Assembly (NCBI GenBank): GCA_964552465.1
Contig: CAZKGR010000018.1
Location: forward strand, 6,097 to 70,096
DNA length: 64,000 bases
Direction: 5' to 3'
DNA from: an uncultured bacterium
Lineage (GTDB): Bacteria > Electryoneota > Electryoneia > Electryoneales > Electryoneaceae
This document shows positions 21,610 through 32,790 of the stretch, in pieces. Below the pieces are notes generated by a model. It did no database searches, was not told where the DNA came from, and was given only the letters and a program-made list of their open reading frames with translations. Both the position numbers and the translations under genes were made by a program. Each line of letters begins with the position of its first letter. The first letter of the stretch is position 1.

Positions 21610-23958
21610 CTACCACCACTGAGAGTGAGATATGGGAACGAGTTGCCCATCACGCAACTCAAACAACAGCGCCCCCTGCTGATCGGTACGCATGATCGTT
21701 GCATCGGCTTCATCCGCACGGTCCAGGACTTCACGTGTCGGATGACCGTAAGGATTATTTCGACCGCAGGAAATCGCCAGATACTGCGGATTCAGGATCT
21801 GCAACCATTCAGTCGACGTCGAGCTGCGGCTACCGTGATGACCAGCTACCAGCAGGTCGATCTCGGTGAACGAGAAGGAATCTAGCAGACCGAGCTCGAC
21901 CTCATTAGGCGCGTCACCGGGAAACACCCCGGACACAGAACCGGCATGCCATACCCAGACCAAAGATTGCTCGTTGTCGCTGAGGGCTGGATCAGCTTCA
22001 GCTGTAGCAGGATACAGGCACAGCAGTTTGCCCCACGGTCCGCTTACGGTCAACTGAGCACTTCCGATACGTACATCGGTACCCGATTCACGTAGCGCGT
22101 GAATCGCAGCCGCGCCAGCCCGATCCCGAGCCGTCCCCGGTCCAACCAGCGCCGCCTTCACATTCACCTGCCGCACGAGTTCGGGGACCGCACCGCAATG
22201 GTCAGCGTCACCGTGTGAGATCAGCAGCAGGTCAAGATCACGTATCCCCAGCCGTCGCAATTGATCAACCGCCGCACTTGAGTATTCGGGTCCGGAATCA
22301 ATCAAAACCGCCCGCTGCCCGGACCGGATCAAGACCGCATCTCCCTGCCCGACATCGATCACGGCCAGCTTGATCCGGTTGTCAGGCAACCACAAGGAAC
22401 CAAACACAACAATCACCAACGCCGCCACTCCAATAAGAACTGCGCCGGATGATGCTTGCCTGGCTATCCGCCTGGTTCCGAAGGCGACTACCAGCAGCAC
22501 GATTCCCGCGATAATCCCGAACGACACCGGCATATGGTTCAGCGATGGTAAATTCACCGCTGCTGTGTCTGCCAGGCCAGCCGTCGCGCGTAGCAGGATA
22601 TCCATGGATTCGCCGAACACACTCGCCAGCCACGGCCACCATCCGACAAATACCATTACCCATCCCGCGGTCAACGCGAGTGTGACAGTCAGAAGCGCTG
22701 GTAATGTTATCAGCGGACCGAGCAGCGGCAATCGTCCGAAATGCACTGCCAGCACGGGTGCGGTGAACAGCCATGCGTAAACTGAGACGACAAATGCGAG
22801 CATGATCCGACGTGACCACAGGTGAATGAACCTGCGACGTTGGGTTGCATATTTCCTTTGCGGTGAACCGAGGTCGCGGAAATACTGCGCAGCGAAAACC
22901 GATCCAAATGTACCCGCGAAACTGAGTTGAAAGCCGACATCATACAGTCCTGTTGGACGTATGAACAGCATGATCAGGTATGCGAGCGCGAGGATGTGAA
23001 ACGGGTCGCTGTTTCGTTGGATGGCGCGTCCGATCACCGCCACGCTGATGATGATCGCAGCACGAACCACCGGTGGATTGGCACCAGTCAACGGTACCAA
23101 CACTATCAATACAGGCAAGGCGAGCAGCGAAGTTATCCGTGGCCCGAATCCCAGCCATGACAACGCGCTGATCACAATCGCGATGATTAACGCAACATGC
23201 ATTCCCGAAATCGCGAACAGGTGCATCAGGCCGGATAACGCCACTCGATCACGTAGCTCATCCTCCCAACGTGAACGGTCACCAATGAGCAGCGCCTGCG
23301 CCAAGGGTTGAGTTGTGGGGGAGAGGTAGCTGTGGATAGCGTGGTCAATTCCGATCCGCCATTCGCCAACAATTTGACGTGTCCACCCACCCCAAAATCG
23401 TTGGACACCGAGCGGTTCAACATGACGAACCGAGCGCAGCATGGTGTGTACATCCCGGTTCGCCCAATAGCCGCGCCAGTCAATGTCGCCTGGATTACGT
23501 GGACCAACAAAGGTTTCCATGCGCGCGATCATCCGCACGTATTCACCCGGTTGTAAACGCACACCCAGAGAATCGGATAGATACACAACTGCACCCGCAT
23601 CTAGTTCGCCGCCACGTTCTCCTGCCCACCAGCGATGCATGCTGACCCGGTACCGCAGACGGTCATCATAGCGCTCTATCGGAATGCGCACCGTGCCTTC
23701 AACCCAGACCCGGCCTTCGGGAAGCGTGGGAGGTGGTTCAGGCACGCCGAGTAACCAGCCAAGACTCGCAAACGTTGCGAGCAAAAGCAGGATCTTAAAT
23801 GTTGATGGGGCTTTGAAGCGGAGAAAAATCCCCGTCAGCATCAGCAAACCGACGGGGACAAACAAGTATACACGTGATATTACTGCGTCCGGAGCGAGCA
23901 GCAAGCCGATGGTAAAAGCAATTGCTGCGAAGACTGTTCCACGCCCCGGCGGATTCAT
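21610..23958 (-). CDS. comEC: DNA internalisation competence protein ComEC/Rec2
   Basis: OB-like N-domain (PRNPG..D), SGL.HLFAISGMHV, GFQLSF, multiple TMs, MBL domain (DVGQGD, SHGDADH, GHHGS, N.YGHP). Confidence 0.95.
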   Translation of the reverse strand: MNPPGRGTVFAAIAFTIGLLLAPDAVISRVYLFVPVGLLMLTGIFLRFKAPSTFKILLLLATFASLGWLLGVPEPPPTLPEGRVWVEGTVRIPIERYDDRLRYRVSMHRWWAGERGGELDAGAVVYLSDSLGVRLQPGEYVRMIARMETFVGPRNPGDIDWRGYWANRDVHTMLRSVRHVEPLGVQRFWGGWTRQIVGEWRIGIDHAIHSYLSPTTQPLAQALLIGDRSRWEDELRDRVALSGLMHLFAISGMHVALIIAIVISALSWLGFGPRITSLLALPVLIVLVPLTGANPPVVRAAIIISVAVIGRAIQRNSDPFHILALAYLIMLFIRPTGLYDVGFQLSFAGTFGSVFAAQYFRDLGSPQRKYATQRRRFIHLWSRRIMLAFVVSVYAWLFTAPVLAVHFGRLPLLGPLITLPALLTVTLALTAGWVMVFVGWWPWLASVFGESMDILLRATAGLADTAAVNLPSLNHMPVSFGIIAGIVLLVVAFGTRRIARQASSGAVLIGVAALVIVVFGSLWLPDNRIKLAVIDVGQGDAVLIRSGQRAVLIDSGPEYSSAAVDQLRRLGIRDLDLLLISHGDADHCGAVPELVRQVNVKAALVGPGTARDRAGAAAIHALRESGTDVRIGSAQLTVSGPWGKLLCLYPATAEADPALSDNEQSLVWVWHAGSVSGVFPGDAPNEVELGLLDSFSFTEIDLLVAGHHGSRSSTSTEWLQILNPQYLAISCGRNNPYGHPTREVLDRADEADATIMRTDQQGALLFELRDGQLVPISHSQWW

Positions 23959-23959
23959 C

Positions 23960-25336
23960 TCAGCTCACTCGTTTCACCTTTACTACAAGACGGGTGGCTT
24001 CAGTAACTACGATTTCATCACCCTCAGAAATCGTTTCGCCGCCAACTGCTTCCGCCTTCCAGTATTCGCCACCGATCTTTACTTTGCCCCGCGGATCGAG
24101 ATTATTGACTACCGTGCCGTGTTCGCCGACAAGGCCTTCATGACCGGTAGTCACCTTGTTCTTTTGCGCACGGAGCGCCATTGTCAAGGCGAATGTGAAG
24201 AACGCCACCGTGACAACTACCGTCGGGATAATCACACCCCACGATACCTGCATATCCGGCACATCCGTGTCAATCAGCAGTACTGATCCCATGATTAACG
24301 AGACAGTCCCGCCAAAAGTGAGAAATCCAAAGCTGGTCACATACACCTCCAGCACAAACATGACAATCGCAAGCACGATCAGCAGCAAACCTGCCCAACT
24401 GATCGGAAGGGTTTGCAACGCAAAGAACGCGAGGATCAACGCGATCACACCGACCACACCGGGGATGATCGCCCCAGGATTGTAAAGTTCAAATATTAGA
24501 CCGTAAAAGCCAATGAGCATCAGGATATACGCGAGATTTGGATTCGCGAGTGTGCTGAGGAAATCCTCACGCCAGGTCGCTTCAAACTCCTCGACGTGGG
24601 CATCCTTCGTGTCGAGAATCTGTTCATGAGTTCCGACCTCGACGATCATACCGTCCATCTGCTCGAGCAAATCGTCCACATCGTCCGCAATGAACTCGAT
24701 GACATTCAACTCGAGCGCTTTCGTCGCAGTGATCGAAGCTGCTTCAACCACCGCCTGCTCGGCCCAGTCGGCGTTACGGTTCCGTTTCTCCGCCATCGCA
24801 CGGACATTCGCGATCGCGTCATTGGTCACTTTACGGCGCATCGCCTCGGCATCCGACTGTGCGACTTCGCTCGTATCGGTAGTCGTCGGAGTGTCACCCA
24901 TTCCGACTGGTGTTGCAGCGCCGATGTTGGTTGAGGGTGCCATTGCCGCAACATGCGCGGACATCGTGATGAATACCCCGGCAGAACCCGCGCGAGCACC
25001 ATCCGGAGCCACATAAACCACAACCGGTACTGGACTGTTGAGAATCGTCTTGGTAATGTCGTGCGTCGATTCCAGCAGACCGCCAGGCGTGTCGAGTCGA
25101 ATGATCAATGCTTCCGCAACAGCATCGTCAGCACGCTCGATGGCACGTTCCAACCGCTGAGTAACTATCGAGTGAATCGCACCTTCGACAGTCATCAAGT
25201 GGACAATCGCGCGACTGTCCTCACGATCAGCGACTTGAGCAGTATCGTTCTCAGTCGCAGTGCTGTCAGTCTGTGCAATGACGAAACCCGTTATCAGCAG
25301 GCACGCAAACAACATTATGAATATCAGGCGTTTCAT
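23960..25336 (-). CDS. NfeD family membrane-bound serine protease (long form)
   Basis: LDTPGGL, ARAGSAG.FI, AAMAPSTNIGAATPV ClpP-like domain; TM bundle; C-terminal OB fold (G.VKIGGEYW.A). Confidence 0.93.
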   Translation of the reverse strand: MKRLIFIMLFACLLITGFVIAQTDSTATENDTAQVADREDSRAIVHLMTVEGAIHSIVTQRLERAIERADDAVAEALIIRLDTPGGLLESTHDITKTILNSPVPVVVYVAPDGARAGSAGVFITMSAHVAAMAPSTNIGAATPVGMGDTPTTTDTSEVAQSDAEAMRRKVTNDAIANVRAMAEKRNRNADWAEQAVVEAASITATKALELNVIEFIADDVDDLLEQMDGMIVEVGTHEQILDTKDAHVEEFEATWREDFLSTLANPNLAYILMLIGFYGLIFELYNPGAIIPGVVGVIALILAFFALQTLPISWAGLLLIVLAIVMFVLEVYVTSFGFLTFGGTVSLIMGSVLLIDTDVPDMQVSWGVIIPTVVVTVAFFTFALTMALRAQKNKVTTGHEGLVGEHGTVVNNLDPRGKVKIGGEYWKAEAVGGETISEGDEIVVTEATRLVVKVKRVS

Positions 25337-26745
25337 GATTCAGCATCCTCCAGTCCCGCACTCAGCAACTTAATTACTTCGTCGCGAGATTCGATGGATA
25401 GAGTGCGGGCATCCAGATGAAACCCGCCATCTTTAAGATACCCGATCAATGGGACATCCGCGAGCCTTAAAGCGGTTTGTAACGTCTTCAAGCGACCCTG
25501 TGAACCGGTGAACACTATCGCACAGCTTGGTAATTCTTCCTCAGGCAGACTACCTCCGCCGACGTAGGAGGTAGATGGTTGAATCGAGACATTTAGCTTG
25601 CAGGATCTGGTAACTGGTGCTACGGAATCCAGTACCGGCTGCAGCCAGGATTCCAGATTTGCAACGGATTTGCCAAGCATCTCCCACACGGGGAGGTTCT
25701 GCTTGTGTGTACCGGTCAGATATTCGCGCAACGTAGCCGACAATGCCGCAAACGTCAGCTTGTCCGGACGCACGGCCCGCATTAATGGATGCTTGCGCAT
25801 CTTCTCAATTGTAGTAGCTTTACCCACCGTTATTCCTGCCTGCGGCCCGCCAAGCAGCTTGTCACCACTGAGGGTGACCACATCAGCACCTGCGTCAACG
25901 CTATCGCGGACAAGCGCTTCAGGTGGTAATCCGGCGAGAGCGCTAACGTCATCAAGCGCACCGCTACCCAAATCATCAACTACGGGCACACCATGCTCGG
26001 CACCAAGCGCCACCAGTTGATCGAGTGATGTATCCTCGGTGAATCCAATCACCCGGAAGTTCGACGGATGCACTCGCAGCAGTAAGCCTGTTTTTGATGA
26101 GATCGCTTCTGAGAAATCCGACAGGCGGGTGCGGTTTGTGGTGCCAACCTCGTGGAGTTTCGCACCCGACACCTTGCATATGTCCGGAATGCGGAAACTG
26201 CCGCCGATCTCGACAAGCTGGCCGCGGCTGACAATTACTTCTTTCCGTTTCGCAAGCGTGGTCAAGGCAAGCAGCACTGCGGAGGCGTTGTTATTGGTAA
26301 CCAGTGCATCTTCTGCGCCAGTCAGAGCGAGCAACATCTCGCGGACCAAGTTGTGACGCGACCCGCGCCGACCCCGTTCGAGATCGTATTCCAGGGTGGA
26401 ATAACCGCTTGCTACCGCGTTCATTTCGACAATTGCAGCTTCGCTGAGCGGTGCACGACCGAGATTGGTGTGGATGATGACACCGGTGCCGTTTAGCACA
26501 CGGCGGAGTGGCGAACGGAACCGCTTTTCGAGTTCATCATGAGCAATACGGGCGAGGTCAGAGGCGTCTGGAATGATGCTGTCCGCATCATCGAGAACCA
26601 TTTGACGAGTTTCGTCCAGCAGCTCACGGATTGTCTCTACCACGAGCGTTGAGTTACGCCATACCCCAAGTTCATCTCGATTCAATACAAGATCAACTTT
26701 TGGGAGGTGACGTAGTCGTTCGTTATGTGAAGAGTTATTAGTCAT
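25333..26745 (-). CDS. selA: L-seryl-tRNA(Sec) selenium transferase
   Basis: VLNGTGVIIHTNLGRAPL, LEYDL..G.RGSR, VTNNNASAVLL, SRGQLVEIGGSFRIP, EVGTTNRT, SGDKLLGGPQAGI. Confidence 0.97.
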   Translation of the reverse strand: MTNNSSHNERLRHLPKVDLVLNRDELGVWRNSTLVVETIRELLDETRQMVLDDADSIIPDASDLARIAHDELEKRFRSPLRRVLNGTGVIIHTNLGRAPLSEAAIVEMNAVASGYSTLEYDLERGRRGSRHNLVREMLLALTGAEDALVTNNNASAVLLALTTLAKRKEVIVSRGQLVEIGGSFRIPDICKVSGAKLHEVGTTNRTRLSDFSEAISSKTGLLLRVHPSNFRVIGFTEDTSLDQLVALGAEHGVPVVDDLGSGALDDVSALAGLPPEALVRDSVDAGADVVTLSGDKLLGGPQAGITVGKATTIEKMRKHPLMRAVRPDKLTFAALSATLREYLTGTHKQNLPVWEMLGKSVANLESWLQPVLDSVAPVTRSCKLNVSIQPSTSYVGGGSLPEEELPSCAIVFTGSQGRLKTLQTALRLADVPLIGYLKDGGFHLDARTLSIESRDEVIKLLSAGLEDAES

Positions 26746-26769: not shown

Positions 26770-29700
26770 TCAACTCTGACCTTTTGTGCGACCGAACGGA
26801 ATCTGCTTGGCGGCATCAGTGACAGCCCCGATCTTGACCGCATAGCTGCTACGGTTCTGGATATCTTCATCAGTCACAAAATGTACGTCGAGCAAGCCGT
26901 CTGTGCGGTATCCAGTGCGCAGATAGTTCATCTCAGCCAATGCAGCCGACCACCCCTCGAGCCATCTGAGCAGAGCTTTCCGATCCTTGGAATCCTCGGT
27001 TACATGCAGCAGTAGGTCTATGTCGCTGCCCGCAGCAGCGGTGCCGTTTTTCGTACTGCCGAAGATGTAAAACGCCTTGATGCCAAACTCACCAGGTTCG
27101 AGACGGCTGGCGATACGTTCCGACATCCGGTATCTCCAACGCCAATGGTCATCATCAACACTTGTGTCGACGGGAATCTCGTCTGTGTATTGAGCTGTCA
27201 TTGCTTCAGGATCGAGTTCTTGCGTTGGAGTAGTGAAAACAGCCACCGCCTGCTCGAGATCAGCATTCATGAACACTTTCAATATTTTACCGCCAACCGA
27301 GTGTTGCACGTCAATCACACGAACTACCTTTTCCAGATCCTCAAACTCTGGTAGCATTTGAGAAAGGATGTTTGCGCTCTTGGTCAGGATACGTTCATTG
27401 AACGCATTGTTTGCTTCATCGGGATACAACGGGAGATAACGGATTGACGATTCGACCAGATCCTGGAAGAAATGGGTACCAAAAGACAGGTCGGGGACAT
27501 AATTGCCCTTCTTGCGAGCGATCTCGATCAACATCGCTGTGTTGTTAATGTCGCTGTAGGTGATGCTCACGCCGAGCTTGATGTCACCACGACTGCCCCA
27601 ACGTCCCGGCCCCATCAGAATGAACTGGCGTTTCGGAAGCAACTTGTTCAACGCTCCCACCGCTCGCGCTACTCGCAGCATTTTTTTCTTGTCTTCAAGA
27701 TCGCCGTACGCCGATGGATCAACATATACGACATATTGAATGTCCGGCACCCAGCCGTTGGAAACGAATTTGCTCGCTGAGAAGAGGATCGCACTTTCAG
27801 GGATGTCGGTTGGAATTGGCTGTGGCCGAGTGTATTCTCCGTGGCTTTGTGGGCGACATTGCAACAAGTAGAAAAACTTACCGTCATGTGCAAATTCAAT
27901 GTCTACCGGTACTTTGAATGACTCTTCAAGCGTGGTCATTACATTGCGCATGTGCTGCATGAACGGTGAATTGTGGATCAAGCCCTCAAACGTGACCGCG
28001 TATTCCTTCTCTGCGAAATCGAGATTGAAAAGGTTCGGCTGACGCATGTAATCCCCTTCAATCTCGGAAACGATTTCAGTGATCCGCGGGAATGCGTCTC
28101 CGTGCTCATGCAGAAAATCCTTGATTGCAACTGTGACAAATTCATTGCGGTCAAGATCAATTACATCCATGTTGCGGGGCGCGTAACGGACATTCTCTTC
28201 GACTGTTGCGTTAACGCGTAACGATGGTTGACCCGGAGTCGCGAGAATGCAATAATCGTCACTGAGTCGATCGACCGCACGTGTCCCCAAGCCCGGCACC
28301 AATCGGATCAATCCATCCTCACGTTTGATCCGGGGAGACCAACGAAACTCGTTGTTGCTGAATGCGACACCGGCAAACGCAGGCAGATAGTATTTACCTA
28401 CCTGTGTACCTACCACCTCCTGGATCAGGATGCCCATCTCCTCATGGAAGTCGAGAAGACCACGCTCAGCCCGGTACTCAATCGGATCGCTGCCGAAGGT
28501 GGATGAATACACCTCCGCAATCGCATCCATCAGTGCTTCCAGACGGTCATTCTTGCTGCCACGGTTGGCGAGGAACAAACTGGTGTATTTGCCGGAAAAC
28601 GCAGAACCCAGCCGATCCTCCAGCAAACTGGAACTGCGGACGATGATCGGACTGTCGCCGAAATCGTCCAAAGCCATGGACAGACCGGGAATAATCTCCG
28701 GCGGTACATGCGAGACCTTGAACAGGTGCACAATGTGGGGATACTCCTGACGGGCCTGCTCGATGTCTTTGTACTTCTGTTCGGTGACTTCTTCGAGATT
28801 GTTGTGATGCAAGAAGCTATGCAGGCCATCCGAGGTGATATACCACGTTTTCGGCAGCTTAACCTCAGCGTACTCCGGGAATTCATCTATGGCACGTTGG
28901 ATCATTTTCCACGCGAGATACATTCCGGCACCTTTACCGCCGAGCTTGCCGTGGCTGTTTACCGGGTGAATTAACCTTGGAATCAACTGAATGAAATCCT
29001 TGATCTCGACATAGTGTTTCGCAATCTGAATGAAGTCCAGCTGATCACTAAGGAATCGACGCGCCATCGCCACCTTTACACCTTTGCGCGTGGATTCTGG
29101 CAGTTCTATGGTGTCCAGCGACAGGTGATGAAAGCGACGGATAGCGTCCGAGATGTCGGTGAGGGTACTGTTAAGGTTGATCAACGTCCGCACGAGAAAA
29201 CTAGCACGGTTTTCCTGAAGATATTTCTGCACTAGCTCGAATATTTCAAGGTCCGAGAGATTCTCTTCCGCGACCCGGAATATCTCATCGCTCAAGGCCA
29301 AAATGTCGAATGTCTTTGACTGGTGAACAGGACGGTTTGGATCGTCATCAATCTCATTGCGACGGACACTCGATCCCAGAGTGGCCAGGATTTCGTCCGC
29401 TTCAACAACGCCCTTCCAACACAGATGATTCATCATTTTTCGAGCAACTACAAGGAACAACTCCTGATCAGTTCGGCGTAACAGATCGACAACGACCTGC
29501 CACTCACCCTCGCGCTTTATCTCCTTGCGGGCAGAATCCCAATCTACAACAACTAATTTCAATTGCTTGTGTAGCAGGAAGTGACCGATACGTTCAGCGA
29601 TAGTGTCGAGCAGCTTGATCTCTTCCTTGAGGAATGGTCCTTGATCTTCGTTAGGCATTTCACGCGTGTAGAATACCTCGATGTGGCCAAGTGTGCTGTC

Positions 29701-29970
29701 ATGAACTTCAATCGGCGCGCGCAACACCCAATTCGTTGGACGCATCCCATCAGGGCCGTAAACTTCACCGTCATACAAGATACGAGCGAAGCAATAGTCG
29801 GGGTATTGCCAGCCGGGAGGGATAACCTGCGTGACACCCTGGAACACATCTTCGACATTCGAGTCGCTGTCGTTAAGAAGCTCCTCGATCTCGTATAGAC
29901 AGCTCAACTCTTTCGCACGTTCCTGCAATGCTTCAATCAAGTGTTCTACTGATTTTGTTTTATCAGCCAT
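26770..29970 (-). CDS. PEP/pyruvate-binding (PPDK_N ATP-grasp) protein with N-terminal sensor-like region and C-terminal minimal nucleotidyltransferase domain
   Basis: GKLGGKGAG, IVRSSSLLED, AFSGKY.S, MGILIQEVVG, DIEFA, LLQCRPQ; GPGRWG...LSFGTHFF swivel; FGS......GSDIDLL tail. Confidence 0.85.
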   Translation of the reverse strand: MADKTKSVEHLIEALQERAKELSCLYEIEELLNDSDSNVEDVFQGVTQVIPPGWQYPDYCFARILYDGEVYGPDGMRPTNWVLRAPIEVHDSTLGHIEVFYTREMPNEDQGPFLKEEIKLLDTIAERIGHFLLHKQLKLVVVDWDSARKEIKREGEWQVVVDLLRRTDQELFLVVARKMMNHLCWKGVVEADEILATLGSSVRRNEIDDDPNRPVHQSKTFDILALSDEIFRVAEENLSDLEIFELVQKYLQENRASFLVRTLINLNSTLTDISDAIRRFHHLSLDTIELPESTRKGVKVAMARRFLSDQLDFIQIAKHYVEIKDFIQLIPRLIHPVNSHGKLGGKGAGMYLAWKMIQRAIDEFPEYAEVKLPKTWYITSDGLHSFLHHNNLEEVTEQKYKDIEQARQEYPHIVHLFKVSHVPPEIIPGLSMALDDFGDSPIIVRSSSLLEDRLGSAFSGKYTSLFLANRGSKNDRLEALMDAIAEVYSSTFGSDPIEYRAERGLLDFHEEMGILIQEVVGTQVGKYYLPAFAGVAFSNNEFRWSPRIKREDGLIRLVPGLGTRAVDRLSDDYCILATPGQPSLRVNATVEENVRYAPRNMDVIDLDRNEFVTVAIKDFLHEHGDAFPRITEIVSEIEGDYMRQPNLFNLDFAEKEYAVTFEGLIHNSPFMQHMRNVMTTLEESFKVPVDIEFAHDGKFFYLLQCRPQSHGEYTRPQPIPTDIPESAILFSASKFVSNGWVPDIQYVVYVDPSAYGDLEDKKKMLRVARAVGALNKLLPKRQFILMGPGRWGSRGDIKLGVSITYSDINNTAMLIEIARKKGNYVPDLSFGTHFFQDLVESSIRYLPLYPDEANNAFNERILTKSANILSQMLPEFEDLEKVVRVIDVQHSVGGKILKVFMNADLEQAVAVFTTPTQELDPEAMTAQYTDEIPVDTSVDDDHWRWRYRMSERIASRLEPGEFGIKAFYIFGSTKNGTAAAGSDIDLLLHVTEDSKDRKALLRWLEGWSAALAEMNYLRTGYRTDGLLDVHFVTDEDIQNRSSYAVKIGAVTDAAKQIPFGRTKGQS

Positions 29971-31714
29971 GAATGATTACTCCACGCGCGCTGCGCCCGT
30001 CAACCTTGACAAGTAATGGTTTCAATAGACGGACATGACGAAGGTACTCTGTTTCCTGAACGAGTGGACGACGACTCAACCACTCGAAATCTATTGTGTT
30101 TGGACTGTCATGCGAAACCGCAAAGTAATTTACCTGGAACGATGACAGGTTATGAAAGAAATGTGATCCTTGGCTAAGATCAACATTCATCTCAGGAGTT
30201 GTGACTTCTACAATGCTCGATGCAGCTGAAATCTGACTCCAGACTACCGGTATGCCAAGCCACGGATCGCTCGTTCCCCAACGTCCAAATCCGATCAACA
30301 AACAAGGACGATTCTCACGCAGCAACGACAAGTTGATTGGCTCCAATTCCTGGGCGATCTGTGGTGTTTTCGCGGCGTTAAAGGATTCCGGCTTGAGATA
30401 GATAATATCGAGTAATTGTTGATCTATGCCGTTGCCTAAAGCACGGTCGGATGAGAGTAGCAGGTCACGGTTTTCATAATCTGCTTCTGTGAGGGTCACA
30501 TTCTCCTCAAACGCCACCATTGGACGAACCTGAAGAAAGCTGAATTTCGCCATGTCTTCAGATGATTTCGGGAGTTCAACGGCAAATTCGATCTCAACTT
30601 CTTGTCCAATCTCTTCTTCACATAACTTGAGAAGTCGTTGGACCAGTTTGTTTAATGGAAACAAACTGAATTGGAGCGTCGGACCAAAGTCAATTACACG
30701 CGGACCATCGCGACCGATCCCTGGTTGCAAACGGTCTGATTGAGCATCGTAGGTCGAGGCAATGTGATTAAGGCTACCATCCTCTTCCGCCACATCGAGT
30801 CCTGCTTTAACCAGGTATTCTGCTTCCTGCAATGGATCAAATGTTGGAATATTACCGAGATTCACTGACCAGAAATCTGTCTGAGTGGTTTTGAGCAGAT
30901 CCTGCATCGATCCCACTGGAGGAGGTAGCTTGGGGTAAGATGGGCAATAAGTCCATACCAAACCGCCGTCCACGATGTGCTTTCCCAGACCCAGCGCGAG
31001 ATCAACCACGCCTTGTTCCGGACGAGCGCGTCCGAATGCATAGTAGTTGAAGGAACGCCCAACGCCGGACAAAGTCGGATAGAAACGATCACCATGTTCA
31101 CTGCCAGCGACTACCTGAATGATTACTGCCATCTCTTCATCGGCAGGATCAACATGTGCCTTTTCCATGTACAACCGCGCTTCACGGAACCATGTCGATG
31201 CCCAAACGAACTTGATCGCCTCAATCAATTTGTGAAACCGAGCAGTCGTGTCACTAAGGTTGTTTGGTATCATCTTGGTCGCGTAGACACCGGCGAACGG
31301 CTGGAACATGGCGTCTTCAAGTCGACTCGATGACCGAACTGCCAGCGGACCCTTCAACGTATCCGCAAGCGACATCAAGTCTCCAACATGCTTGCCGGGA
31401 AAGGTTGCTTTCTGAAATGCGCGACCGATGCGTTCGTCGGAAGGTGGATCGTCCAACAGCTCCTGCAACTTATTGAACTCGACGAAATCGCGAAACATCG
31501 AGGAACGAAGCACTACCATTTCCGGAATGGTTACGTCAATGCTGGGAAATTCTCTTGGATCAAAGCGATCACGAAGAAGTTCGTCCATGAACGCTAATCC
31601 CAATGCCTTGCCGCCAAATTCACCCGCACCAATAAACCGGTAGCGCTGTTCCGCCGTGTTTTGATGACGATGGAACGGGGTGGCATATGTGGCATCCTTG
31701 CCCAGCGTAGCCAT
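29963..31714 (-). CDS. PEP/pyruvate-binding (PPDK_N ATP-grasp) protein
   Basis: GEFGGKALG, AVRSSSRLED, PFAGVY.T, MAVIIQ, EIEFA, FLQVRPM; GFGRWG...LSQGSHFF. Start moved to MATLGK; 8-nt overlap with the next gene. Confidence 0.85.
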   Translation of the reverse strand: MATLGKDATYATPFHRHQNTAEQRYRFIGAGEFGGKALGLAFMDELLRDRFDPREFPSIDVTIPEMVVLRSSMFRDFVEFNKLQELLDDPPSDERIGRAFQKATFPGKHVGDLMSLADTLKGPLAVRSSSRLEDAMFQPFAGVYATKMIPNNLSDTTARFHKLIEAIKFVWASTWFREARLYMEKAHVDPADEEMAVIIQVVAGSEHGDRFYPTLSGVGRSFNYYAFGRARPEQGVVDLALGLGKHIVDGGLVWTYCPSYPKLPPPVGSMQDLLKTTQTDFWSVNLGNIPTFDPLQEAEYLVKAGLDVAEEDGSLNHIASTYDAQSDRLQPGIGRDGPRVIDFGPTLQFSLFPLNKLVQRLLKLCEEEIGQEVEIEFAVELPKSSEDMAKFSFLQVRPMVAFEENVTLTEADYENRDLLLSSDRALGNGIDQQLLDIIYLKPESFNAAKTPQIAQELEPINLSLLRENRPCLLIGFGRWGTSDPWLGIPVVWSQISAASSIVEVTTPEMNVDLSQGSHFFHNLSSFQVNYFAVSHDSPNTIDFEWLSRRPLVQETEYLRHVRLLKPLLVKVDGRSARGVIIHG

Positions 31715-31802: not shown

Positions 31803-32654
31803 TTACATACGATATGCAATGCCCAAATAGAACGAGGAAGGCCAACGGCGATCCAGGAAATCGTCATGAGGATGATGCCCGGCAAACACTGAGAAATTGC
31901 CGCCAGACCGTTGAATTATAAGGCTCAAGCGTACATCACCCCGGTGACGCCAACGTTCATCCGCACTCTCACGCAGTAGCATCAGGTCCCATTGTACCCG
32001 AGCTTCGACCAACAGAGATTTGTACACCGGCCACACTCCAGCTACATATCCCTCTGCCTGCCCTTGCTGCAATGGATGGTTGCCAAGAATGGTTGCGGGA
32101 CCGCCGTGTATGAACGGTCCTGCGAATACATACATATCCCAAGTCGGTCGATTTTCCCACCACGCGCGCATCGTGGTCGAACCATAAACATCGACCGGTG
32201 ATGTTGTCCCGAACCCAAATCCCGCCTGCGTGAAGAATGTGCTCATCGGTGAACGGATGTCGATCTCGTGATAGCACCACCGTTCCCAGTGTGAGAACAC
32301 AGCAATTCTGTTCGCGAGTTGCCAGCGCCAGCTGAGAAACTGGGCGCTGTCAATGTGACGCGGGTTGAACGGTGTGATCGAGGCGCTATGATCAAATCCA
32401 GCCGCTTCACGATATCCCGCGCCGAACCAGACCGCATGACCATATCCTTCACCAATCTGGAACAGAAGCTCCGCACCGTAGTCCCAGGTGGCGGTTGGAT
32501 CTTTTTCCGTATGCTGGTACGCCCAGGTGTGCCCGGCCGGGGAGAAAGTCCAGTCCCAGCCAGCAGTCTCAAAGGCTTCCTGGGCTGGAGCTGGTGTGAA
32601 GAATGCAAATGAGAAGACAGTCACTAATGCAATCAGAAGGTGGGTGAACCGCAT
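31803..32654 (-). CDS. Hypothetical exported protein, probable outer-membrane beta-barrel
   Basis: Signal peptide (APA|QE); Trp/aromatic-rich alternating strands; terminal FYLGIAYRM. Confidence 0.6.
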   Translation of the reverse strand: MRFTHLLIALVTVFSFAFFTPAPAQEAFETAGWDWTFSPAGHTWAYQHTEKDPTATWDYGAELLFQIGEGYGHAVWFGAGYREAAGFDHSASITPFNPRHIDSAQFLSWRWQLANRIAVFSHWERWCYHEIDIRSPMSTFFTQAGFGFGTTSPVDVYGSTTMRAWWENRPTWDMYVFAGPFIHGGPATILGNHPLQQGQAEGYVAGVWPVYKSLLVEARVQWDLMLLRESADERWRHRGDVRLSLIIQRSGGNFSVFAGHHPHDDFLDRRWPSSFYLGIAYRM

Positions 32655-32790
32655 CGCCAGAACCTCGCGCGTGAACGTCATAGGTGAACAGGGCAGTATC
32701 ACGTCGGTCGAGACAAACTACGGTTTTGCTGTGCTTCAGGGAACAGTATACCTTCCTGTTTCACAGTGAACGGGATCAACCGAGACGACG

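Follow-up and report, generated by a model that had tools for sequence, protein, structure and literature searches.

What reaction do dikinase-like proteins perform when the domain that binds pyruvate in their relatives is missing? This question is raised by two overlapping minus-strand genes in a 64,000-nucleotide stretch of DNA from an uncultured bacterium of the phylum Electryoneota (contig CAZKGR010000018.1; the whole stretch is called the window), which encode a small and a big protein. The original prediction, made from the sequence of the window, had given both proteins the ATP-grasp domain of phosphoenolpyruvate (PEP) synthase and a His-bearing motif, and had denied them a PEP/pyruvate TIM barrel. 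This architecture is borne out: each protein matches the Pfam family PPDK_N, the motifs SQGSHFF (positions 30155-30175, small) and SFGTHFF (27466-27486, big) are present, and the barrel is absent, as PF02896 has no match in either protein and the AlphaFold2 (AF2) models of both contain none. The prediction had left the substrate of the pair unknown; here it needs correction, as the pair has conserved partners in a specific orthogroup of glutamate dehydrogenase (GDH) and a metallophosphoesterase.

Direct reading of the sequence confirms the predicted 8-nt overlap between the stop of the small gene and the start of the big gene (ATT CAT GGC TGA against ATG GCT GAT). The small gene starts at the ATG at 31714, because the database contains an exact copy of its product (P0003) and homologues of 583-595 aa; a TTG start at 31885 was rejected because that frame would enter the upstream gene. 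The pair stands far above chance, since database relatives number more than 7,900 for either protein. Homologues of the small protein measure 575-614 aa, those of the big protein are 55-63% identical across phyla, and relatives of either protein are 50-63% identical across phyla. The two proteins also align with each other (26% identity, E 1e-34; big 341-855, small 31-540) over a span that comprises the ATP-grasp domain and about 150 further residues, including GRWG and S[QF]G[ST]HFF. The small and big proteins are paralogous, barrel-less, dikinase-type enzymes.

The genomic context of the pair was sampled at 80 species-representative loci. Their record titles name Acidobacteriota, Ignavibacteria/Melioribacter, Bacteroidota, Rhodothermales, Calditrichota, Planctomycetota, Gemmatimonadota, Zixibacteria, Eisenbacteria, Krumholzibacteriota and Aminicenantes. 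In 75 of the 77 loci with room for it, the big gene comes immediately after the small gene, and the ends of the two genes overlap by a few nucleotides in about half of these 75. The original prediction had proposed linkage to GDH in homologues as a check, and the linkage is real: in 67/71 loci the pair is immediately preceded on its own strand by a GDH gene, at a median distance of 82 nt. These GDHs, termed GDH1, are 66-78% identical among loci. A metallophosphoesterase of about 285 aa adjoins the end of the big gene in 43/60 loci, usually in convergent orientation. Its metal-site signature is intact, but GNDD replaces GNH[DE]; a search of its profile against the Protein Data Bank (PDB) returned weak matches to aq_1956 and YfcE and no close solved relative.

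The physical association of the small and big proteins is supported by natural fusions, in which the two are collinear (nine distinct protein clusters, 1629-1648 aa), and by the conserved overlap of the gene ends. A complex, as the original prediction had it, is thus supported by these fusions and overlapping ends; it is not obligatory, since 18 of the 34 big-bearing genomes surveyed below lack the small protein. As an observation on the GDH partner, GDH1 (the protein encoded in this genome and 73 linked GDHs) has 33 positions that are at least 95% conserved and set it apart from 13 further GDHs of these genomes or of the phylum, a small comparison set. They include H127, Y297, T96, T225, T401 and Y423, as well as W256 in an insertion absent from the others.

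Co-occurrence was surveyed in 52 genomes of the phylum with at least 90% completeness, covering 39 genera and 7 families. The small protein (E<=1e-170) was found in 16 genomes, the big protein (E<=1e-150) in 34, GDH1 (E<=1e-170) in 35 and the phosphoesterase (E<=1e-40) in 22. Both big and GDH1 were found in 34 genomes, this one among them, and neither in 17; GDH1 occurs alone once, in an assembly of about 390 contigs, and big never does (Fisher test, p = 8e-13, uncorrected and inflated by kinship among the genomes). The counts of big and GDH1 are also identical inside four families polymorphic for the trait (7/10, 4/8, 10/15 and 0/4). Where the module is missing, the only GDH of the genome is one of 44-46% identity, and GDH1 is still present in all five checked genomes in which the pair is not beside a gdh gene. 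The phosphoesterase-bearing genomes all have GDH1 (22/22) and nearly all have big (21/22). The idea that GDH1 occurs only with the whole pair holds for big and is wrong for small, as 19 genomes have GDH1 without it.

Variants of the module were also recorded. The big orthologues of two genomes (G030 and G053; 961-964 aa) lack the C-terminal nucleotidyltransferase (NTase) domain, and those of two others (G052 and G027; 916-928 aa) lack the N-terminal GAF domain. Of 31 genomes whose big protein has the NTase, 21 also have the phosphoesterase, and of three whose big protein lacks it, none does, a weak hint of pairing. In one of the genomes with big and without small, a 156-aa frame between gdh1 and big (G032:C49:27933-28298) matches the ATP-grasp core. 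From the co-occurrence in the phylum and the variant counts, it follows that the core of the module is GDH1 plus a protein with an ATP-grasp and a His domain, and that small, the phosphoesterase, GAF and NTase are frequent accessories.

Both ATP-grasp domains look catalytically intact from their sequences. In alignments of 36 small and 41 big homologues (51-85% identity), the residues of the nucleotide site, namely GGK, the R of VRSSS, [DE]xE and QxRP, are invariant in both sets; they correspond to G34, G35, K36, R127, E374, E376, Q395 and R397 in small and to G344, G345, K346, R445, D690, E692, Q704 and R706 in big. In fold searches with VIA, the domain of small matches rifampicin phosphotransferase (RPH; 5hv1) with Z 24.3 and PEP synthase (2ols) with Z 23.9, and that of big matches RPH 5hv1 with Z 24.9. 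At the level of sequence, a phmmer search of both proteins against the PDB gave a single, marginal match, to the RPH ATP-grasp. The NCBIfam models for PEP synthase, pyruvate phosphate dikinase (PPDK), RPH and PigC together score 18-51 bits against cut-offs of 598-1350; the PEP synthase/PPDK equivalogs account for 25-51 bits (cut-offs 598-883) and the RPH model NF041857 for 17.8-29.1 bits (cut-off 999).

The domain that follows the ATP-grasp, here called the C-domain, carries the invariant His. It begins about 5-10 residues past the end of the grasp in the AF2 models, with no inserted domain of the rifampin-binding (RIF) type, and both copies contain the family motifs GRWG and G[ST]HFF. Across the same homologues the motif His is always conserved, together with S514-H518, F520, H521, N522, G475, G477, R478, W479 and G480 in small and G787-S793 and S829-L838 in big. 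The original prediction had called the motif swivel-like. On this point sequence and structure part ways. No swivel profile is matched: PF00391 is absent from both proteins, Pfam returned no match for the isolated C-domains even at E<=10, the swivel signature GGxTSH does not occur in them, and an ESM Atlas search with the C-domain found the unnamed fragments of its own family only. Comparison by hhalign of C-domain profiles (small, big, and both pooled with the paralogue from a second GDH locus described below) with canonical swivels gave no significant signal (P 0.055-0.74); the references were PF00391-bearing proteins of this genome and its relatives, of the sizes of PPDK, enzyme I and PEP synthase. 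The single common element is a terminal VDGRSxRGV-like motif, similar to the VDG.tG.V ending of the canonical swivel.

The predicted structures point the other way. The AF2 model of small has a predicted local distance difference test score (pLDDT) of 83.7 and a predicted template modelling score (pTM) of 0.86, and that of big has a pLDDT of 73.8 and a pTM of 0.59. By VIA, the small model aligns over 356 residues with PEP synthase 2ols (model 4-583, chain 13-466), over 338-351 residues with the Clostridium PPDK structures 1dik, 2dik, 1kbl, 1ggo and 1jde (to chain 505-511), and over 349 residues with RPH 5hv3 (up to chain 866). The alignments with 1vbg, 1vbh, 5jvn and 2r82 cover about 224-233 residues only and stop at model residue 401 or so. 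In the first set of PPDK structures, that of 1dik, the central His domain faces the nucleotide-binding domain, and in the second set it faces the PEP domain or is intermediate (PMC5371819). The big model gives the same split between conformers, its alignments to 5hv3, 2ols and the PPDKs with a nucleotide-facing His domain spanning the C-domain. The C-domain thus coincides with the phospho-His domains of PEP synthase, PPDK and RPH solely in crystal forms in which these domains face the ATP site, and because of this conformer-specific superposition both models place it at the docking position of the phospho-His domain on that site.

The local fold agrees with this placement. His518 of the small model is the first residue of a helix (518-525), with a strand (498-504) and a loop before it and a further strand after it, and His833 of the big model lies at the start of a helix (832-840) after a strand (813-817). 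The order strand, loop, His, helix and strand is the layout around the canonical TSH of PPDK. On the strength of the models, the C-domain is probably a strongly diverged swivel domain, so the swivel-like character that had been predicted finds its support in structure and not in profile similarity.

The big protein has three further regions; two of them, its GAF and NTase domains, had gone unmentioned in the original prediction. The fold of its N-terminus, visible by fold search only, is that of a GAF domain (VIA matches to 3cit with Z 13.1, rmsd 2.4 and 126 aligned residues; NifA 8jrc, Z 11.5; PtsP 3ci6, Z 10.7), and many further GAF domains match at Z 10-12. Pfam GAF (PF01590) stays below threshold (13.7-16.2 bits, cut-off 22.4), and a profile of the N-terminal 340 residues found nothing meaningful in the PDB. 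These extra residues contain no hidden barrel in the AF2 model, which shows the GAF fold followed by helices. One big homologue (P0146, 1202 aa) has a duplicated GAF-like module, at residues 9-130 and again from 133. Past the C-domain, residues 914-941 form a disordered linker to the NTase domain, which matches Pfam NTP_transf_2 (PF01909) at 959-1004 (28.4-32.2 bits, cut-off 21) and carries the motif GS-x(9-13)-DxD as FGSTKNGTAAAGSDIDLL. Among the 41 big homologues G971 is invariant and S972, D983 and D985 are conserved in at least 90%. Identity with the MntA antitoxin was rejected (22.9 bits against an equivalog cut-off of 60), as was a defence system, for which PADLOC gave generic NTase and phosphoesterase motif matches only.

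Table 1. Features of the gene pair, its surroundings in the window and the related loci elsewhere in the same genome (G000)
Feature	Position	Strand	Description
Small subunit gene	29963..31714	minus	583 aa; ATP-grasp and His-bearing C-domain; open reading frame, translation, exact database copy P0003
Big subunit gene	26770..29970	minus	1066 aa; GAF, helical region, ATP-grasp, His C-domain, nucleotidyltransferase; open reading frame and translation
Overlap of small stop and big start	29963..29970	minus	8 nt, read directly
Small PPDK_N ATP-grasp	30503..31618	minus	residues 33-404; Pfam PF01326, E 4e-31
Small C-domain	29966..30502	minus	residues 405-583; diverged, swivel-like; codon of invariant His518 at 30161-30163
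Big GAF-fold N-terminal domain	29527..29943	minus	residues 10-148; sensor-like; VIA fold match
Big all-helical region	28975..29505	minus	residues 156-332; AF2 secondary structure, partly low confidence
Big PPDK_N ATP-grasp	27808..28947	minus	residues 342-721; Pfam PF01326, E 3e-56
Big C-domain	27232..27789	minus	residues 728-913; paralogous to small C-domain; codon of invariant His833 at 27472-27474
Big C-terminal minimal nucleotidyltransferase	26830..27147	minus	residues 942-1047; motif GS...DIDLL
Orphan 299-aa gene	31803-32702	minus	88 nt upstream of small gene; no Pfam or NCBIfam match
selA-nfeD-comEC	21610-26745	minus	selA starts 24 nt past big stop; tightly packed; no functional link evident
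Metallophosphoesterase	contig C39, L120:4008-4874	plus	outside window
Sulfotransferase	contig C39, L120:4871-5980	minus	between phosphoesterase and gdh1; outside window
GDH1	contig C39, L120:6190-7512	plus	73% identical to Planctomycetota-linked GDH query; outside window
Second GDH system	contig C3, L121:4503-9047		GDH, then 9 nt later a 1057-aa protein; outside window

The module is split in the genus of this bacterium. In the window the pair lies between the orphan gene and selA-nfeD-comEC, an arrangement shared by two genomes of the same genus, and gdh1 and the phosphoesterase gene are not adjacent to it in the window or in the genus. They lie together on another contig of this genome, and are directly adjacent to each other in the same-genus relatives. 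The canonical order, gdh1-small-big with a convergent phosphoesterase, is found in other genera of the family and phylum, and the orthology of the pair to members of the module is clear from 53-64% identity. A homologue of the orphan gene (38% identical) adjoins gdh1 divergently in the canonical module of another genus (L127:3259-4077). Judged by sequence, the adjacency of the orphan gene to the pair may be a remnant of an older synteny. A scan for promoters and terminators gave no more sites than shuffled sequence.

The same genome has a second GDH locus. Its GDH is 34% identical to the Planctomycetota-linked GDH query, and the 1057-aa protein encoded next to it has a weak receiver-like N-terminal region, a PPDK_N domain and the same His C-domain (37% identical to small). 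The locus resembles another copy of the system, with a single protein in place of the pair.

What the pair does can be read in several ways. It is quite possible that the pair is part of a sensor-controlled covalent-modification switch on GDH1, and this is the reading favoured here. ATP would autophosphorylate the His of the C-domain in the manner of a dikinase, releasing AMP and Pi, and the phosphate would pass from the His to GDH1 as a regulatory mark; the NTase would perhaps add a nucleotide as a second mark, the GAF domain would sense a metabolite and switch the activity of GDH1 accordingly, the phosphoesterase would reverse the mark, and small would be an accessory paralogue that docks on big. 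A precedent for the first of these steps is VadK, a barrel-less PPDK that autophosphorylates on His and binds metabolic enzymes (PMC13400623). The complete scheme, in which a cryptic swivel delivers phosphate to GDH1, with a possible second mark from the NTase, control by GAF and an eraser in the phosphoesterase, as a reversible switch present in at least eight named phyla and the GDH counterpart of the control of glutamine synthetase by GlnE/GlnD, is put forward tentatively and is more doubtful than its core. Several points weigh against a switch on GDH1. The linkage and co-occurrence fit equally well a metabolic role around glutamate or 2-oxoglutarate, and every chemical step is inferred from sequence and models. 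The C-domain has no profile similarity to PF00391, so its His could serve another role, and the pTM of the big model makes the packing of its domains uncertain. The pair of this genus is found apart from gdh1, in a run with selA-nfeD-comEC. GAF, NTase, the phosphoesterase and small are each absent in some lineages, so the full picture of writer, eraser and sensor cannot be universal.

A serious rival, even if unlikely, is a small-molecule dikinase or phosphotransferase comparable to RPH, HpeHI or phenylphosphate synthase, in which the phospho-His would pass its phosphate to a GDH-related metabolite or another compound that GDH1 would supply or consume. Every characterised relative with this ATP-grasp has a small molecule as its acceptor; RPH, HpeI and PEP synthase give the best structural matches; and genes in one operon with an enzyme gene often act in the pathway of that enzyme. 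A protein target is nevertheless favoured over a metabolite because no acceptor-binding domain was found (neither a barrel nor a RIF-type insert), because an eraser-type enzyme is co-located, which in a metabolic route would make a futile cycle, and because each of the two GDH paralogues has a paralogous partner of its own, which would be unneeded if a common metabolite linked them. This paralogue-specific pairing of GDH and PPDK_N proteins argues for specificity at the level of the protein, and the GAF or receiver-like sensor domains suggest regulation. If the system is a sensor, its output may still lie elsewhere: the pair could autophosphorylate and act on another protein, or the NTase could make a nucleotide that serves as the signal, and gdh1 would then simply be co-regulated. 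The relocation of the pair to selA-nfeD-comEC in this genus would suit such an arrangement, as would the phosphoesterase remaining with gdh1 and not with the pair; the near-perfect co-occurrence of big and GDH1 over the 52 genomes, with big never found without GDH1, and the retention of GDH1 in all five checked genomes with a displaced pair make it rather improbable. A non-covalent regulator or scaffold that binds ATP or AMP and the GDH1 hexamer, acts allosterically and uses the His for binding is improbable. Accessory proteins that make a bacterial GDH responsive to nucleotides have been reported from Thermus, and the lack of a sequence match to a phospho-His domain would be explained; however, small and big both keep every catalytic-site residue of the ATP-grasp invariant, the invariant His at the start of a helix docks at the ATP site in the models, as is required of a phospho-carrier, and the metal site of the associated phosphoesterase is intact. 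Database names such as 'pyruvate, water dikinase' would imply a split PEP synthase or PPDK with its pyruvate barrel encoded elsewhere. This is barely conceivable, given the equivalog scores reported above, the absence of PF02896 and PF00391 and the presence in the genome of three proteins with a canonical PF00391 domain (on contigs C25, C41 and C8). Tested for the swivel domain alone, these three resemble by frame length a PPDK (915 aa), an enzyme I (591 aa) and a 924-aa protein.

The favoured reading, a switch on GDH1, can be set beside several known systems. The parallel with rifampicin phosphotransferase that had been drawn originally is sound, as in structure both proteins match RPH-Lm (5hv1/5hv3) best, with Z 24-25 over 286-365 aligned residues. 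Like the pair, it has a PPDK_N ATP-grasp, a His domain that docks on it and no PEP/pyruvate barrel; unlike the pair, it has a rifampin-binding domain between the ATP-grasp and a canonical PF00391 swivel. PEP synthase (PpsA) and PPDK share with the pair the ATP-grasp fold and its conserved residues, and the C-domain sits as their His domain does when it faces the nucleotide-binding domain, whereas the pair lacks the TIM barrel and GGxTSH and scores far below their equivalog cut-offs. HpeHI and phenylphosphate synthase are likewise heteromeric dikinase systems, and HpeI (9goj; PMC12167813) matches the ATP-grasp with Z 17-18; however, they have the ATP-grasp and the His on separate subunits and use phenolic acceptors, whereas each subunit of the pair has both parts. 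The closest functional analogy is VadK (Rv1127c) of Mycobacterium tuberculosis, a barrel-less dikinase derivative and ATP/Mg-dependent His autokinase that makes no PEP (PMC13400623). VadK arose by recent truncation of a PPDK, has a canonical swivel and is linked to the methylcitrate cycle, whereas the family of the pair is ancient, with a diverged His domain, added GAF and NTase domains, a paralogous partner and a link to GDH. The likeness to GlnE/GlnD, which exert NTase control in nitrogen metabolism, and to PtsP (EI-Ntr), in which a GAF domain is fused to a His-phosphotransfer enzyme, is by analogy only, as the NTase and GAF folds are generic. The targets of those systems are glutamine synthetase, PII and PTS-Ntr, and here the target would be GDH.

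A literature search found no paper describing a GDH-linked PPDK_N pair. New here are the structural evidence, tied to particular conformers, that both paralogues have a cryptic swivel, the finding that big and GDH1 co-occur almost one to one, the accessory status of small, the tie of the phosphoesterase to GDH1 and the split arrangement in the genus. GDH stands at the junction of carbon and nitrogen metabolism, and to our knowledge post-translational control of GDH is not known in most bacteria. The module extends over Acidobacteriota, Ignavibacteriota/Bacteroidota, Calditrichota, Planctomycetota, Gemmatimonadota, Zixibacteria and others, and, uncharacterised and widespread as it is, may well be an ATP-driven control system for GDH1. 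If this is true, dikinase chemistry would extend to the control of proteins, beside the single recent precedent of VadK, and the annotation of more than 8,000 proteins, which now bear the names 'pyruvate, water dikinase' or 'PEP/pyruvate-binding protein', would have to be revised. Control of GDH by the module would open a directly testable regulatory mechanism.

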